From Candidatus Curtissbacteria bacterium RIFOXYA1_FULL_41_14 (GTDB taxonomy: Bacteria > Patescibacteriota > Microgenomatia > Curtissbacterales > GWA2-41-24): 49,671 nt of DNA. Under the pieces are notes generated by a model. It was not told where the DNA came from and searched no databases. It saw only the letters and a program-made list of their open reading frames with translations. The stretch is from contig MFCA01000028.1 in the NCBI GenBank assembly GCA_001775095.1, positions 17,746 through 67,416 on the forward strand. Direction: 5' to 3'. Below are positions 12,575 to 44,102 of the stretch, one piece after another (position 1 is the first letter of the stretch; every line of letters begins with the position of its first letter). The position numbers and the translations under genes were made by a program.

Positions 12575-12660
12575 ATATTTTGAGGTTTGCCCATAATGAA
12601 TAAGATCCTAATTCTTTTAGGTCTAAAGCCCTTTCAGTTTGAGTACTGGCCAGTATTACT

Positions 12661-12697
12661 AAAGACCCCGTACATTGCTAACATGGGGTCTTTTTTT
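12661..12697 (+). terminator. terminator-like hairpin
   Basis: AAAGACCCCG/TGGGGTCTTT stem plus T run. Confidence 0.55.
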
Positions 12698-12873
12698 CTT
12701 TTCTAAGGGAACACCAAAGGTTTCCCCTTAGTATTCCTCTTCCTTTAAGTGGATAAAATTGGCCTGGCAAAGCCAGATCCAATTTTGATTTAGTATTAAG
12801 CTTACAATATACAGTCAGATGTCCAATTTCGAATTGGAAATTGGAAATTCACTGTAGTACAATTCAGGGTCAA

Positions 12874-13401
12874 ATGGCGGATAAGATTGTTCCTGAGGTA
12901 TTTAATAGTCCGACTTATGGTCAGTTGTCATGGCAGCAAGCACTTTTGAAAATGATCGCCTTTATGGGAGTTGATACTAAAGCTTCCTACGAGATGATTA
13001 TCGGAACTGATTCTGAGGCTGTCAATGGTATGGCCGATTTTGTTTCAGCTGTAATTGTTCACAAAAAGGGCAGAGGCGGAATCTATTTCTGGGCAAGGCA
13101 AAAAATAGATAATCTTCACTCAATGAGACAGAGGATTTGGCAGGAGGCGATTATTTCCTTGGCTGTGGCGGAGAAATTAGTTGGTGACTTAGTCCAGTTT
13201 GGTCTAGTTGATGGTCGCTCTAAGTCTGTGCTTGGGGATCCTGAGCGATTTAATCTGGAGATTCATGTTGATATCGGACCCAATGGGGAAACGCGTGCGA
13301 TGATTTCGGAAATTGTCGGAATGATTAGAGCCAATGGCTTCAAAGTTGCCACTAAACCAGCTTCCTGGGGCGCAAGCCACGTCGCAGATCGACATGTATA
13401 A
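12874..13401 (+). CDS. RNase H-like YkuK (DUF458) family protein
   Basis: IGTDSE, LEIHVDIG.NG.T, KP.SWGASHVADRH. Confidence 0.88.
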   Translation: MADKIVPEVFNSPTYGQLSWQQALLKMIAFMGVDTKASYEMIIGTDSEAVNGMADFVSAVIVHKKGRGGIYFWARQKIDNLHSMRQRIWQEAIISLAVAEKLVGDLVQFGLVDGRSKSVLGDPERFNLEIHVDIGPNGETRAMISEIVGMIRANGFKVATKPASWGASHVADRHV

Positions 13402-13509
13402 TGTCGATCGAAGACCATGAGTTATATCGAATGGTCGCTGACAGGCATGTGTAACATGACTGGCAGCGGCCCTGAGTACAATCGAAGGGTTGCGGATCGA
13501 CACGTCTAA
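13381..13509 (+). repeat. three recoded copies of the VADRHV-stop tail separated by inverted copies and 18-nt B hairpins
   Basis: Tails at 13381, 13434, 13489; hairpins at 13416-13433 and 13471-13488. Confidence 0.88.
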
Positions 13510-13557
13510 ACTAGGGTTTTTCTCTCAGAATAATATAAAATGAATTAGAGGATTATT

Positions 13558-14115
13558 ATGAATAGTCCCAAACATTTTGCGATTACGGATGACGTCCATC
13601 AACGGACAATTATTCTCGCCCGTTTAAGACTGCCATGGCTAATTGTGGGTCTGACAGGGGGCTTGGCTGCATCTTTTTTGGTGTCTAAGTTTGAAGATGT
13701 GCTGGCTGCAAACCTGTATCTTGTCTTTTTTATACCAGTAATTGTCTATTTAAGCGATGCGGTGGGAACTCAGACAGAAGTTATTTATGTAAGGAATTTG
13801 TCCACTTTTAAGGATAATTTCGCAAAATATTTAGCTAAAGAAATATTAGTAGGGGGCTTTTTGGGGGCTGTTTTGGGCGTATTGTTAGGTTTGGCAGCTT
13901 TTGCGTGGCTAAGGTCTGTTGAGACCGCCATAACAGTAGGTTTTGCAATGTTTTTAAATACTACCATTGCACCTGTGATTGCCGTAGTTATTCCAGAGAT
14001 TTTATCTAAAGAAAATATCGACCCGGCTTTAGGCGGAGGTCCATTTACTACAGTAATACAAGATTTTGTCAGCTTGTTAATTTATTTCCTTGTTGCCACC
14101 GCGATAATTTTGTAA
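13558..14115 (+). CDS. MgtE-type Mg2+ transporter, membrane domain only
   Basis: RLPWL, FIPVI, IDPALGGGPFTTVIQD. Confidence 0.88.
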   Translation: MNSPKHFAITDDVHQRTIILARLRLPWLIVGLTGGLAASFLVSKFEDVLAANLYLVFFIPVIVYLSDAVGTQTEVIYVRNLSTFKDNFAKYLAKEILVGGFLGAVLGVLLGLAAFAWLRSVETAITVGFAMFLNTTIAPVIAVVIPEILSKENIDPALGGGPFTTVIQDFVSLLIYFLVATAIIL

Positions 14116-39997: not shown

Positions 39998-40036
39998 TTA
40001 CAGCTGTTCCAGCTTTACCCTTCGGCTTCGCTCAGG
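39998..40036 (-). repeat. B hairpin plus recoded xer tail VKLEQL-stop
   Basis: Minus strand CCTGAGCGAAGCCGAAGG-GTAAAGCTGGAACAGCTGTAA. Confidence 0.85.
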
Positions 40037-40042
40037 ATGAAA

Positions 40043-40345
40043 TTAGAGCTGTTCCAATTTCACTTTTTCCTCGCCCTTGGGAGGCTGGATGAGAGAGAGG
40101 TAGCGTTCGGTGGTCGAAAGTCTCTTGTGGCCGGCGATTTTGGAAATTAGAACAAGCGATGCACCGGACGAAAGATGATGGGCAACCCAAGTGTGGCGAA
40201 GATCATTAACTTTGGCGCCCGAGATCCCTGCCCTTTTGTAGTAGCGGTCAATAGCAGTTCTGATATTTCTGACGAGAAGTGGTCTGCCGGTTTTGGTGAC
40301 GAAGAGGGTTTTATTGGTAGTTTTTGTGCGTTCTTCTAAATATCT
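40043..40345 (-). pseudogene. duplicate of the last 100 codons of the Xer-like recombinase
   Basis: Protein identical to the C-terminus of 43008-43883; only synonymous differences. Confidence 0.92.
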
Positions 40346-40353
40346 GTAGAAAA

Positions 40354-41460
40354 TCAAGAATTCGGAGGCCAAAGTTTCCAGACGGCCCATTGATCTTTGA
40401 GAACTACAACTGCTACCGAATCTACAAGATCAAATAGTCCCTCAGGGAAGACGTTGGTATTACTTAATTCAAAACAAATGTTTTCTTTTGTGCCTGGAAG
40501 CACCTCTTTACCAAAAAGGAAACCAAAAGGGCCACCTTGAGATTTTTTTGCCGGAATCACTCTTCCATCTTTGAGATAAACGACAATAGAGAGATCTACA
40601 TTATCTGTTATGTCCGATGAAAAACGAAGTGTTTCTGGAGAATTATTTTCAAAATCAAAAGAAATACATTGATAATATCTCTTCGGTACTCCTGTCCCTT
40701 CAGGATCCCAGGGATTTACGATTGGCCCTGTCAAAGTAATAGTGGCATAATCCCGTGCACTAAGGCTTTCACCCAAATTCTTATAATTATTAACGGCACC
40801 TTCTGGAATTAGCTGAGCTTTGCTCAAATCCGCAATCACTTCACCGTAGGGGATTGATCTTGGACTGACGCCATTTTCCATATTACCGTGGTCAGTGGAA
40901 AGTAAATTTGGTTTCTCTATCGCTACCGTTTTTGGTGCTGTACTTACTAAGATCAGAGGCAGGGCAAATCCTGGGGGAATTTTTCTGTGTTCTCCTGATT
41001 CTAAAGAGAACGGTTCATCCCAAAAATACTCTTCAAATTCGTCAAATTCTTCTCCATAGGCAGTAGGAACAAAATTTCGTGTGTTATAAGATCTTCCCTG
41101 ACCAGTAATCTTCAGGCCCAAATTAGCAAAAGTTCTTGTATCTAGTGTCTGTCCACTAATATTTCTGGCAACAGCTTCAATCACCTCAGTTTCTACTTCC
41201 GGTTTAGTTTCAAGAAAGTCTGGAATTGTTTGCCATCTTTTAATATAAATTTGCCAACCATCAGCTTCCAGAATTCCTTCTCTATTTTTTTCAACGCTTG
41301 GGGTTAATTCAGAAGTTGGCATACCTATTTCATCTTCATCATTTCCACCACAACCAGCTAACAAAGCAGTCCCGCCTAAGAATAATTTGAATGTCTTAGC
41401 AAGGAATCTTCTTCGACTAGCTTGAGTCAAAAGGATACCGGATGTTTGTTCAACTGTCAT
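40354..41460 (-). CDS. lipoprotein with twin-arginine-like signal
   Basis: SRRRFL...LLAGC. Confidence 0.75.
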   Translation of the reverse strand: MTVEQTSGILLTQASRRRFLAKTFKLFLGGTALLAGCGGNDEDEIGMPTSELTPSVEKNREGILEADGWQIYIKRWQTIPDFLETKPEVETEVIEAVARNISGQTLDTRTFANLGLKITGQGRSYNTRNFVPTAYGEEFDEFEEYFWDEPFSLESGEHRKIPPGFALPLILVSTAPKTVAIEKPNLLSTDHGNMENGVSPRSIPYGEVIADLSKAQLIPEGAVNNYKNLGESLSARDYATITLTGPIVNPWDPEGTGVPKRYYQCISFDFENNSPETLRFSSDITDNVDLSIVVYLKDGRVIPAKKSQGGPFGFLFGKEVLPGTKENICFELSNTNVFPEGLFDLVDSVAVVVLKDQWAVWKLWPPNS

Positions 41461-42938: not shown

Positions 42939-42986
42939 TTAGAGTTGTTCTAATTTCACTTTTTCTTCCCTTCGACTTCGCTCAGG
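42939..42986 (-). repeat. B hairpin plus recoded xer tail EEKVKLEQL-stop
   Basis: Minus strand CCTGAGCGAAGTCGAAGG-GAAGAAAAAGTGAAATTAGAACAACTCTAA. Confidence 0.88.
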
Positions 42987-43007
42987 GTAAACTGCTCGGA
43001 AAAAGTT

Positions 43008-43883
43008 TTAAAGTTGCTCGAGCTTAACTTTTTCCTCGCCTTTTGGGGGTTGGATGAGAGAGAGGTAGCGTTCGGTGGTCGAAAGTCTCTTGTGGCCGGC
43101 GATTTTGGAAATTAGAACAAGCGATGCACCGGACGAAAGATGATGGGCAACCCAAGTGTGGCGAAGATCATTAACTTTGGCGCCCGAAATCCCTGCCCTT
43201 TTATAGTAGCGGTCAATAGCAGTTCTGATATTTCTGACTAAAAGTGGTCTTCCGGTTTTGGTAACAAAGAGAGTTTTATTGGTAGTTTTTGTCCGTTCCT
43301 CCAGATACCTTTTGAGTACAGCTTCGGCTGCTTTATTTAAAGGGACTGTCCGCTCAGGCCTATTTTCCATAGGTCTAATGTAAAGATGACCCTCCTTACC
43401 GTCTTCTCCTAAAAAGACATCATCAGTTCTTAAATTGGCCAATTCCCCAATTCTGATACCTGTCTGAAGGAGTACCTCGATAATAGCAGCAATTCTAGCA
43501 TCATCTCTGGCGGCATCACGCAGTGCCCTGTATTCAGTGGGGGAAAGAATTCTTGGAGGTTTTGCCTCAAATTTTGGATGGTCAACTAAACTTGCCGGGT
43601 CGTCGGTTAGATACTCCTGGACTTTTAAATATCTAAAAAATGTTTTGGTGGAATTTAATTTTCGCGAAATTGATTTTAGGGTGTAGCCGCTATTTTGCAT
43701 TTTGGCCAAAAAGCCTTTAATGTCATCTGAAGTGACCTCATGGACGTGAGCTTTTGATATCTCTTGTAAGAATGCTATCAGCTGCTCGATATCTTTACCG
43801 TATGCTAAGATGGTAGCGGAGGCTCGCTTTCGGCCTTTTAGGTGTTCAATAAACTCTTTATGAGCTTCGTCCAATTTTTTCAT
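43008..43883 (-). CDS. XerC/XerD-like tyrosine recombinase
   Basis: N-terminal SAM-like domain, TGIRIGEL, NDLRHT, AGH..LSTTERY. Confidence 0.92.
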   Translation of the reverse strand: MKKLDEAHKEFIEHLKGRKRASATILAYGKDIEQLIAFLQEISKAHVHEVTSDDIKGFLAKMQNSGYTLKSISRKLNSTKTFFRYLKVQEYLTDDPASLVDHPKFEAKPPRILSPTEYRALRDAARDDARIAAIIEVLLQTGIRIGELANLRTDDVFLGEDGKEGHLYIRPMENRPERTVPLNKAAEAVLKRYLEERTKTTNKTLFVTKTGRPLLVRNIRTAIDRYYKRAGISGAKVNDLRHTWVAHHLSSGASLVLISKIAGHKRLSTTERYLSLIQPPKGEEKVKLEQL

Positions 43884-44102
43884 ATCCTAGGCATAATTTG
43901 TGCCGAGTCAAACTCGGCTATCGGGTCAGACTTGGTGCAGAATAGCAGGCTGACCCCGATTAATCTTGCTGTTCGCCTTTAGGTTCTATTCGAACATGGT
44001 TCACAGTGCGATTTTACGGGGCAGGCAACTTAAAAAGTTAAGGCAAGTATAATCCTATGCTATGGGTCTTGTCAAGCCCGTCAGGATAATACTGCAGTTG
44101 AT

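Follow-up and report, generated by a model that had tools for sequence, protein, structure and literature searches.

Why would a bacterial gene carry its last six codons and its stop codon three times in a row, in copies that differ in DNA and agree in protein? This question is raised by a gene of the PF04308 family in a window of 49,671 nucleotides (nt) from Candidatus Curtissbacteria bacterium RIFOXYA1_FULL_41_14 (GenBank assembly GCA_001775095.1, contig MFCA01000028.1, positions 17,746 to 67,416), the window being the whole stretch that was analyzed and the reference for the positions given below. The gene ends in VADRHV-stop, and behind each of the first two of its three tails there is an inverted copy of that tail and a short hairpin, here called B, before the next tail begins. 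The same layout recurs in relatives, and within this genome it is repeated at other genes. As to its origin, the explanation that we favor, and to which we give about an even chance, is that small cassettes with replacement tails are exchanged between lineages and insert at the start of the resident tail, which would be displaced and left untranslated.

Three copies of one gene end

The gene occupies positions 12841 to 13401 on the forward strand, according to the open reading frame (ORF) list and Pfam, and encodes 186 amino acids (aa) when counted from the first TTG, its true start being uncertain. The product matches PF04308 (RNaseH_like, DUF458/YkuK type) with an E value of 1.9e-41, residues 37 to 185 aligning with profile positions 5 to 143 of 145. 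According to PMC3985635, the family is an uncharacterized, single-domain member of the RNase H1 clade. The ADRH of the C-terminus is conserved at all 65 family-level PF04308 loci and in four of the five class-level relatives shown, the fifth having ADKH.

Tail 1, the translated gene end (13381 to 13401, forward strand, from the sequence and the repeat finder), is written in a codon flavor that we call alpha, which together with its matching inverted copy is also found at no fewer than 11 other loci, across clades. Tails 2 (13434 to 13454) and 3 (13489 to 13509), both on the forward strand and both recognized with the repeat finder and from relatives, follow at spacings of 53 and 55 nt. Tail 2 is a displaced copy in a second flavor, gamma, and its frame differs from that of the gene; tail 3 lies 108 nt downstream in the gene's own frame, and no inverted copy goes with it. 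Each tail is 21 nt long and translates as VADRHV-stop. Tails 2 and 3 are 76% and 81% identical to tail 1, and the pairwise differences among the three amount to 5, 4, and 7 positions, all of them third codon positions save position 10, which is part of a CGA/AGG arginine swap. At least nine substitutions are required, and 9 of 9 are synonymous, where only 26% of the possible single-base changes to these tails would be. The chance of all-synonymous tails is 5e-6 if changes are random and 2e-3 if only half of them hit untranslated copies. The synonymous-only variation with its two-base swap, the core of the original prediction for this locus, is thus borne out. A degenerate VADRHV-stop pattern has three matches in the whole 1.15-Mb genome, all at this array, and the reversed control has none. 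The same prediction had named a lack of reads across all three units as a reason to abandon it, and spanning contigs were indeed found: Logan contigs, which were built independently, cover 13000 to 13800 with 0 differences in runs X3 and X16, and a contig of run X19 covers 13230 to 13516, with all three units and no difference, these three runs being ones that may include the source sample (X numbers are our handles for runs, L numbers for loci, and G numbers for genomes). No RNA run is listed among those that contain this sequence.

The inverted copy of tail 1 (13402 to 13415, forward strand, from the repeat finder and folding) forms a hairpin with that tail, the stop codon lying in the loop; positions 13387 to 13395 and 13401 to 13409 make a perfect 9-nt arm pair. 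The inverted copy of tail 2 lies at 13455 to 13470 on the same strand, recognized from the fold and from the match to its own tail. Each is followed by a B hairpin that resembles a repetitive extragenic palindromic (REP) element. The last G of B hairpin 1 (13415 to 13434, forward strand, from the repeat finder) is the first base of tail 2, and B hairpin 2 (13470 to 13489, forward strand, from the sequence and the repeat finder) has the outer stem CCCT/AGGG instead of CCAT/ATGG. The two hairpins correspond to the 40-nt direct repeat D2 of the repeat finder. This order of parts and its spacing agree with what had been predicted, as does the claim that each inverted copy matches its own tail variant: of the 14 nt after stop 1, 11 match tail 1 and 8 the next tail, and after stop 2 the figures are 12 and 7. 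The rule extends to relatives, where the inverted copy fits its own preceding tail better than the next one in 21 of 29 units (equally well in 6, worse in 2) and mirrors the arginine codon variant of that tail (CGA/TCG, AGA/TCT, CGT/ACG). A switch, in which the inverted copy would pair with either the preceding or the following tail, was considered and rejected, as the match to the next tail averages only about 7 of 14 and fails clearly in L088 and L051. The tail 1 inverted copy is unique in the genome at up to two mismatches, save for one unrelated site, and the tail 2 inverted copy has no other good match there, so the inverted copies belong with the tails and not with B; the idea that they are part of a generic B element was dropped on this ground. 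Folding of the RNA, a check that the original prediction had proposed, gave -54.4 kcal/mol for the plus strand (z of -3.2, with 1 of 200 shuffles as good), and the minus-strand fold is not distinctive against shuffles (z of -1.8). Rfam gave no match on the units within 12700 to 13700 even at E values up to 10, and at the gathering score it matched three tRNAs in the whole window and nothing on the units. None of the five sites in 12600 to 13700 that resemble intrinsic terminators falls within 13381 to 13545.

Recurrence in relatives and at other genes

PF04308 proteins were matched in 45 of 61 related genomes, and a metagenome scan added 80 loci; the closest named relatives are Candidatus Curtissbacteria. 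A recognizable primary tail was present in 84 of the 112 loci examined, 70 of these being distinct and 65 distinct at the family level. The comparison of one-, two-, and three-tail alleles that had been called for can now be given for these 65: a single tail is found in 38, two tails in 23, and three in 4. The multi-tail layout of tail, inverted copy, hairpin, and tail is thereby found at the PF04308 gene in 27 of the 65. Extra tails were detected with a degenerate codon pattern at up to two mismatches, a search that is biased towards intact copies, and the 31 found in this way (27 distinct) are nearly all xADRHV-stop. Position by position, these 27 closely follow the profile of the 65 primary tails. 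Their first codon shares bases with the stem of the hairpin ahead of it and for this reason often encodes I, F, S, or G. Nonsynonymous drift of the extra copies, which according to the original prediction would speak against it, was found in a minority, ADRHV-stop being mostly kept. The decayed copies read VADRYVY (L009 and L056), VTDRDV (L066), RGYRHV (L012), and IADRHE (tail 3 of L078), and four loci counted as having a single tail (L007, L071, L084, and L019) hold remnants that have decayed further. Such decay is as expected if extra tails are unprotected.

The offsets from tail to tail range from 43 to 73 nt (310 nt in L015) and occupy all three frames, and for this reason read-through or a frameshift into the next tail was rejected. 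A hairpin element precedes the next tail in all 29 units whose next tail is within 80 nt. In L012, L025, L074, and L080 a second hairpin type, C, replaces B, and again a partial tail copy follows; the two tails of L023 differ in just one base. The longest stem is at most 6 nt in 36 of the 38 single-tail loci, where the inverted copy is mostly absent, which suggests that the tail and its inverted copy travel together with the cassette. Multi-tail loci are scattered on the protein tree (63 rows), and a single tight clade contains five different arrangements (L040, L041, L042, L044, L045, and L051). Among the related loci, the PF04308 gene of L034 (G022), which at first looked split, has a deletion of residues 70 to 137, and that of L024 (G031) appears damaged, with an internal stop and a scrambled stretch. 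The split gene of L013 (G006), in which residues 154 to 171 are repeated, is an assembly artifact at a 100-N scaffold gap between identical sequence.

To see the layout at other genes, we took the genome's 1565 stop-to-stop ORFs with a length of 100 aa or more and looked, in any frame and up to 300 nt downstream, for a second, exact occurrence of the final five residues and the stop. The scan returned 10 extra tails at 7 genes, and the controls with reversed and with internal peptides returned 0 each; allowing one mismatch in six added only two genes. The six genes besides the PF04308 gene are rpoC, glmS, a gene for an FtsX-type permease, a 503-aa gene, and two tyrosine recombinase paralogues. 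Their repeated tails are 15 to 45 nt long (5 to 15 codons), compared with 21 nt at the PF04308 gene, and three types of element occur over the six genes, namely, B, C, and an 'atatcag' palindrome. rpoC (G000:C25:170068-173769, minus strand; loci L116 and L120) ends in IGRLIPTSPERAKIQ-stop. Its stop is followed by an 'atatcag...ctgatat' palindrome and then, just upstream of the start of rpsL, by a fully recoded copy of the 15 codons with about 11 base differences, all synonymous; the arrangement is also present in G003 and G014. glmS (G000:C3:1240-3090, minus strand; locus L150) has three copies of its last 12 codons, KPRNLAKSVTVK-stop, with type C hairpins between them. At rpoC and glmS, the two genes that were read by eye in this respect, an inverted copy of the tail's own start comes after each tail, and the palindromic element after that. 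Extra tails are present in 3 of 30 related loci for rpoC and in 4 of 29 for glmS, and protein differences between the tail copies of these two genes fall at residues that are naturally variable among orthologues. Synonymous sites are near saturation relative to the closest relative (codon identity, 0.43); an attempt to order the rpoC and glmS tails by similarity gave nothing readable owing to this saturation. The last 130 residues of the glmS product are 65% identical to those of G003, the closest relative genome, versus 82% to those of G025, which hints at a replacement of glmS or of a large part of it.

Two arrays of this kind lie in the window itself, both on the minus strand and both at genes of the Phage_integrase family. 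At a 128-aa Phage_integrase fragment, whose gene occupies 40043 to 40429, the array covers 39998 to 40063, with the tail VKLEQL-stop at 40043 to 40063, a B-like hairpin at 40019 to 40036, and a recoded second tail at 39998 to 40018. At a 292-aa tyrosine recombinase gene, which occupies 43008 to 43886, it covers 42939 to 43037, with EEKVKLEQL-stop at 43008 to 43037, a B hairpin at 42968 to 42987, and a recoded second tail at 42939 to 42968. The last 40 residues of the two proteins are identical.

Origin of the extra tails

Which tail of an array belongs to the gene? In the window, tail 3 abuts intergenic sequence common to the closest relative and is therefore, by position, the original tail. 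Comparison with sister loci likewise showed the last tail to be the native one in four of five cases. Tail 2 of L062 is two third-position changes away from the single tail of its sister L020, with a common downstream flank, and L062 has exactly 54 extra nt compared to L020. Tail 2 of L036 differs by 1 nt from the tail of L005, tail 3 of L044 equals the tail of L041 from nt 4 onwards, and tail 2 of L082 has AGA/GAC codons in common with L017; the fifth pair, L043 and L046, gave no decision. The first tails in the four decided comparisons differ at 2 to about 9 positions, and first tails fall into a few recurring flavors, each with its own inverted copy. In the alignments, unit 1 of the window shows much more identity between lineages than the adjoining synonymous sites do. 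Unit 1 of L044 and that of L088 each match it at 96% (97% in the noncoding part), whereas the gene sequence directly before it, over 150 nt, is 77% identical in L044 and 74% in L088, with third positions at only 52% and 42%. Other alpha copies are less alike (0.53 to 0.89), so not every base is constrained. Tail 2 of the window equals tail 2 of L078 at all 21 nt, and its gamma flavor, two differences from L005, is native to the sister clade. Contigs of another organism with an alpha cassette are present in the same runs (for example, X16 record 6).

Under the explanation that we favor, the array would be two cassettes of about 54 nt placed ahead of the gene's original tail. Each cassette would consist of a replacement copy of the last six codons and stop, an inverted tail copy that folds back to leave the stop codon in a hairpin loop, and one copy of the genome-wide REP-like hairpin B. 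It would enter exactly at the 5' edge of the resident tail, and since it would supply the same six residues and a stop, the protein would stay unchanged while the resident tail would be pushed downstream and out of translation. Cassettes would pass between related Curtissbacteria lineages at the same gene, and each tail would have a past as the translated end of the gene in one lineage or another, and this would account for the exclusively synonymous differences between copies. The same account would explain the foreign first tails, the native last tails, the patchy distribution, and the occasional decay. We infer that the cassettes move horizontally, that displaced tails are young and neutral, and that joining occurs by recombination at the tail start. 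The conserved tail could serve as the anchor for an exchange with a foreign allele, either unequal or facilitated by homology, or an excised segment of tail, inverted copy, and hairpin could integrate at the tail start.

Several observations weigh against this account. Many independent transfers would be needed between lineages whose genes are about 25% apart in nucleotides, a divergence at which ordinary homologous recombination would be very inefficient. No donor tract is visible upstream of tail 1, where the identity to L044 in 30-nt windows is 20, 22, 22, 26, and 26 and the sister L005 is similar. Contigs of four runs, which drop rare variants, contain no shorter alleles or deletion joints. 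The near saturation of synonymous sites at rpoC and glmS makes the ages of those duplications unreadable. Intact extra tails far outnumber decayed ones (10 exact copies, with only 2 more genes at one mismatch), which could reflect selection and not youth. The gamma unit of the window resembles a tail with its inverted copy in the sister clade (L036), and if this resemblance is due to common descent, tail 3 is an old fossil that is still intact. Finally, the account leaves the origin of each gene's first cassette unexplained, and the very first cassette of each type could conceivably have been copied from a template.

A bolder form of the cassette explanation, which we regard as doubtful, is that Curtissbacteria, as members of the Candidate Phyla Radiation (CPR), harbor tiny nonautonomous two-hairpin cassettes that home into 3' coding ends, those of essential genes included. 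The inverted copy of the tail start would then guide the cassette by pairing with the target, and the recoded replacement tail would be cargo that leaves the host protein untouched, so that the invasion would be specific for gene ends and neutral for the protein. Such cassettes would resemble attC cassettes or the guide pairing of IS200/IS605 elements, but with the target's own tail as the cargo.

An alternative, which we hold to be unlikely, takes the extra tails to be old and preserved by selection in their present positions; the excess of intact over decayed tails speaks for it. Selection could act through translation, for instance by re-initiation after the stop, through repeats that permit clean loss of the hairpin, or through continued exchange with the translated tails of cassette-free alleles in a recombining population. 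ADRHV-stop is intact in most of the 31 extra tails, the decayed ones at L009, L056, L066, L012, and L078 (tail 3) being the exceptions, and these exceptions also count against selection. Second tails of rpoC differ from the first only at residues that vary among orthologues, and L044 and L088, which share unit 1, differ in their second tails at only two third positions. Both extra tails of the window end 17-codon ORFs, MSIEDHELYRMVADRHV and MTGSGPEYNRRVADRHV, with an ATG at or just after the previous stop; however, this ATG comes about as a side effect when the CAT histidine codon is inverted. Several second tails (L036, L062, and L006, read by eye) lack a usable start codon or stand shortly after a stop codon, because of which translation of such mini-ORFs is kept as a weak rival. 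The 43- to 73-nt offsets in all frames leave no room for read-through or a fixed frameshift, and pure vertical constraint fits poorly with a unit 1 that is nearly identical across distant lineages and with B loops that vary elsewhere.

The original prediction had taken the match of each inverted copy to its own tail as a sign of fold-back or template-switch synthesis during insertion. Production of the units in place by replication errors at hairpins, followed by divergence, seems improbable to us, and here the prediction fits the data poorly. The order of tail, inverted tail, hairpin, and tail does resemble the duplication, inverted copy, and duplication that template switching leaves. The nearly identical tails of L023 indicate that recent local copying or conversion happens, and short tandem arrays of B hairpins, with periods of 24, 27, and 31 nt, occur elsewhere. 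However, the tails within one array differ at 4 to 7 of 21 positions, all synonymously, when drift of untranslated copies should be mostly nonsynonymous. In addition, the last tail is within 0 to 3 changes of the single tail of a sister lineage, each inverted copy follows the codon flavor of its own tail and not that of its neighbor, and unit 1 is shared with distant lineages. The many synonymous differences within one array, the near identity of the last tail to the sisters' tail, and the distant sharing of unit 1 make the units look like separately acquired cassettes, each with its own pair of tail and inverted copy. Simple tandem duplication by slippage was rejected on similar grounds, with copies 76% and 81% identical, 9 of 9 changes synonymous, and a last tail that fits the sister's.

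It is very improbable that the tails are repeated targets of a binding protein or nuclease whose recognition is confined to the bases that coding holds constant, so that untranslated copies merely look synonymous. Homing endonucleases tolerate wobble positions, the gene product is itself a predicted nuclease, and the mirrored profiles of extra and primary tails would be expected from such a reader. The same pattern at the unrelated tails of six other genes, over 5 to 15 codons, would nevertheless require a separate reader for each gene, and no candidate factor was identified. That a metagenome assembler chained the tails of co-occurring strains is hardly credible: related cassettes of other organisms in the same runs do break the assembly graph at this place (run X20), and the scaffold gap of L013 with its identical flanks did split a gene, but the tails are 21 nt long and differ, giving no long words in common, the spacers are unique in the genome, the contigs of X3, X16, and X19 cover the three units without difference, and the layout recurs in many separate assemblies.

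The B hairpin and known systems

The core of B is TGAG, a closing pair around a 2- to 3-nt loop, and TCGAAGG. It has 77 matches in the genome, where the reversed control has 1. Of the 77 copies, 72 have C..G (45), T..A (20), or T..G (7) as their closing pair, and the outer stems usually have 4 to 5 pairs that vary between loci. Of the 61 genomes searched overall, 50 have the motif; within the family, it occurs in 29 of the 31 other genomes. Stop-to-stop ORFs of at least 120 aa, which cover 82.5% of the genome, contain 34 of the 77 copies, so that B is depleted in ORFs yet far from excluded. At many loci of G000 (for example, C12:3701, C29:78248, and C23:1617), B hairpins are nested in larger repeat families, flanked by runs of a GTGAACT heptamer, inside 'tgtcattctgg...ccagaatg' palindromes, or at the apex of 'atatcag' palindromes, and these nested elements look modular. 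The PF04308 genes of L026 (G016), L035 (G021), and L043 have in-frame insertions of 21 to 31 residues, some of which read like B-type hairpins (…PEQRRR…) and one of which directly follows a GTDSEA motif; the insertions in L026 and L035 explain why these genes had looked split. Hairpin elements thus appear to live within coding sequence too. The genome has two Y1_Tnp (PF01797) genes of IS200-like or RAYT-like type, RAYT standing for REP-associated tyrosine transposase, at G000:C29:210863-211543 and C13:23747-24427. No B is found within 200 nt on either side of either gene. A repeat distinct from B, a CACCCCTGGGGTG palindrome, lies on each side of the C29 copy.

REP elements, with the bacterial interspersed mosaic elements (BIMEs) and the REP doublets forming hairpins (REPINs) built from them, are the nearest parallel for B, which is likewise a short imperfect palindrome, frequent in its genome, often at gene ends, sometimes in tandem, and accompanied by two Y1_Tnp genes. 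Unlike REPs with their RAYTs, B has a core that is conserved across the family and beyond, with locus-specific outer stems, and the Y1_Tnp genes are not flanked by it; the many copies inside long ORFs may be a further difference. To our knowledge, REPs do not carry recoded gene tails. A closer parallel for the tails is found in fungal mitochondria, where mobile endonuclease ORFs come with C-terminal duplications, as in the atp6 hybrid gene of Allomyces and the mobile ORFs (mORFs) of Glomus. There, too, the insert brings a foreign C-terminal part, the protein is complete, and the native part is unused downstream; in contrast, the inserts here combine noncoding hairpins of about 32 nt with a tail of 21 to 48 nt and lack an endonuclease gene, and they are found in a bacterium, at several genes, and as stacked arrays of cassettes. 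Integrative elements insert into the 3' ends of genes and restore them, at att sites in tRNA and protein genes. They duplicate the target 3' end, replace the gene end with the copy on the element, and can form tandem arrays, but they are kilobases long and have an integrase, whereas the copies described here are 32 to 60 nt apart and their site has no integrase linked to it.

Integron gene cassettes carry attC hairpins, and the arrays resemble them in being made of small units, each with an imperfect palindrome at its end and a junction at the start of the next unit; the difference is that these units carry a gene tail and not a gene. An integron array was rejected, since the junctions, GTCGC or GTTGC, do not fit the attC core GTTRRRY. 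No integron integrase or attI was seen adjoining the array, a search aimed at integron integrases not having been made. For Helicobacter pylori, an insertion with long target duplication has reportedly been described, in which inserted DNA lies between direct target repeats of tens of bases in naturally transformable bacteria; here, however, the repeats are recoded, with identical protein and diverged DNA, and the insert is a hairpin element and not a gene. In translational bypassing (gene 60 of phage T4; the byps of mitochondria), the stop lies in a hairpin behind a take-off codon, and the ribosome must hop to a matching landing codon 27 to 55 nt further on. The stop in a hairpin loop with matching codons 53 to 55 nt on is similar, but the protein is already complete at the first stop, and thus no hop is needed. 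A miniature inverted-repeat transposable element with target-site duplication was rejected in view of the varying repeat length (21 nt here, 15 to 45 nt elsewhere) and the many synonymous differences. A diversity-generating retroelement was also rejected, as the differences include A/T, T/C, C/A, and A/G, are all synonymous, and are not confined to adenines (a search for a reverse transcriptase was not made), and so was a reading as a CRISPR array. In the papers searched on DUF458/YkuK, on REP elements in the CPR, and on repeats and hairpins in Patescibacteria, recoded tail duplications were not described. Set beside these parallels, the arrays differ in their tiny noncoding cargo, their pair of hairpins, their stacking, and their occurrence at several genes of a CPR bacterium.

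If the cassette explanation is correct, tiny hairpin elements can sit in the coding ends of genes, even of rpoC and glmS, at no cost to the protein, and they would spread between diverged genomes by means of the only sequence that is conserved next to the gene end. Repeats that exist at the protein level would escape repeat finders that work on DNA, and gene callers and pseudogene finders could misread them. Through them, recombination and DNA exchange in uncultivated CPR bacteria would also become easier to study, with displaced tails recording the allele that was resident before each event. If the extra tails are instead kept by selection, some reader of them exists, which would be more surprising still. 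As to the surroundings of the array, the neighboring genes belong to the Pfam families MarR, DUF5676, MgtE, and ACT, and a 99-aa ORF on the minus strand (13204 to 13503) crosses the entire array in antisense and is probably a by-product of the repeats.

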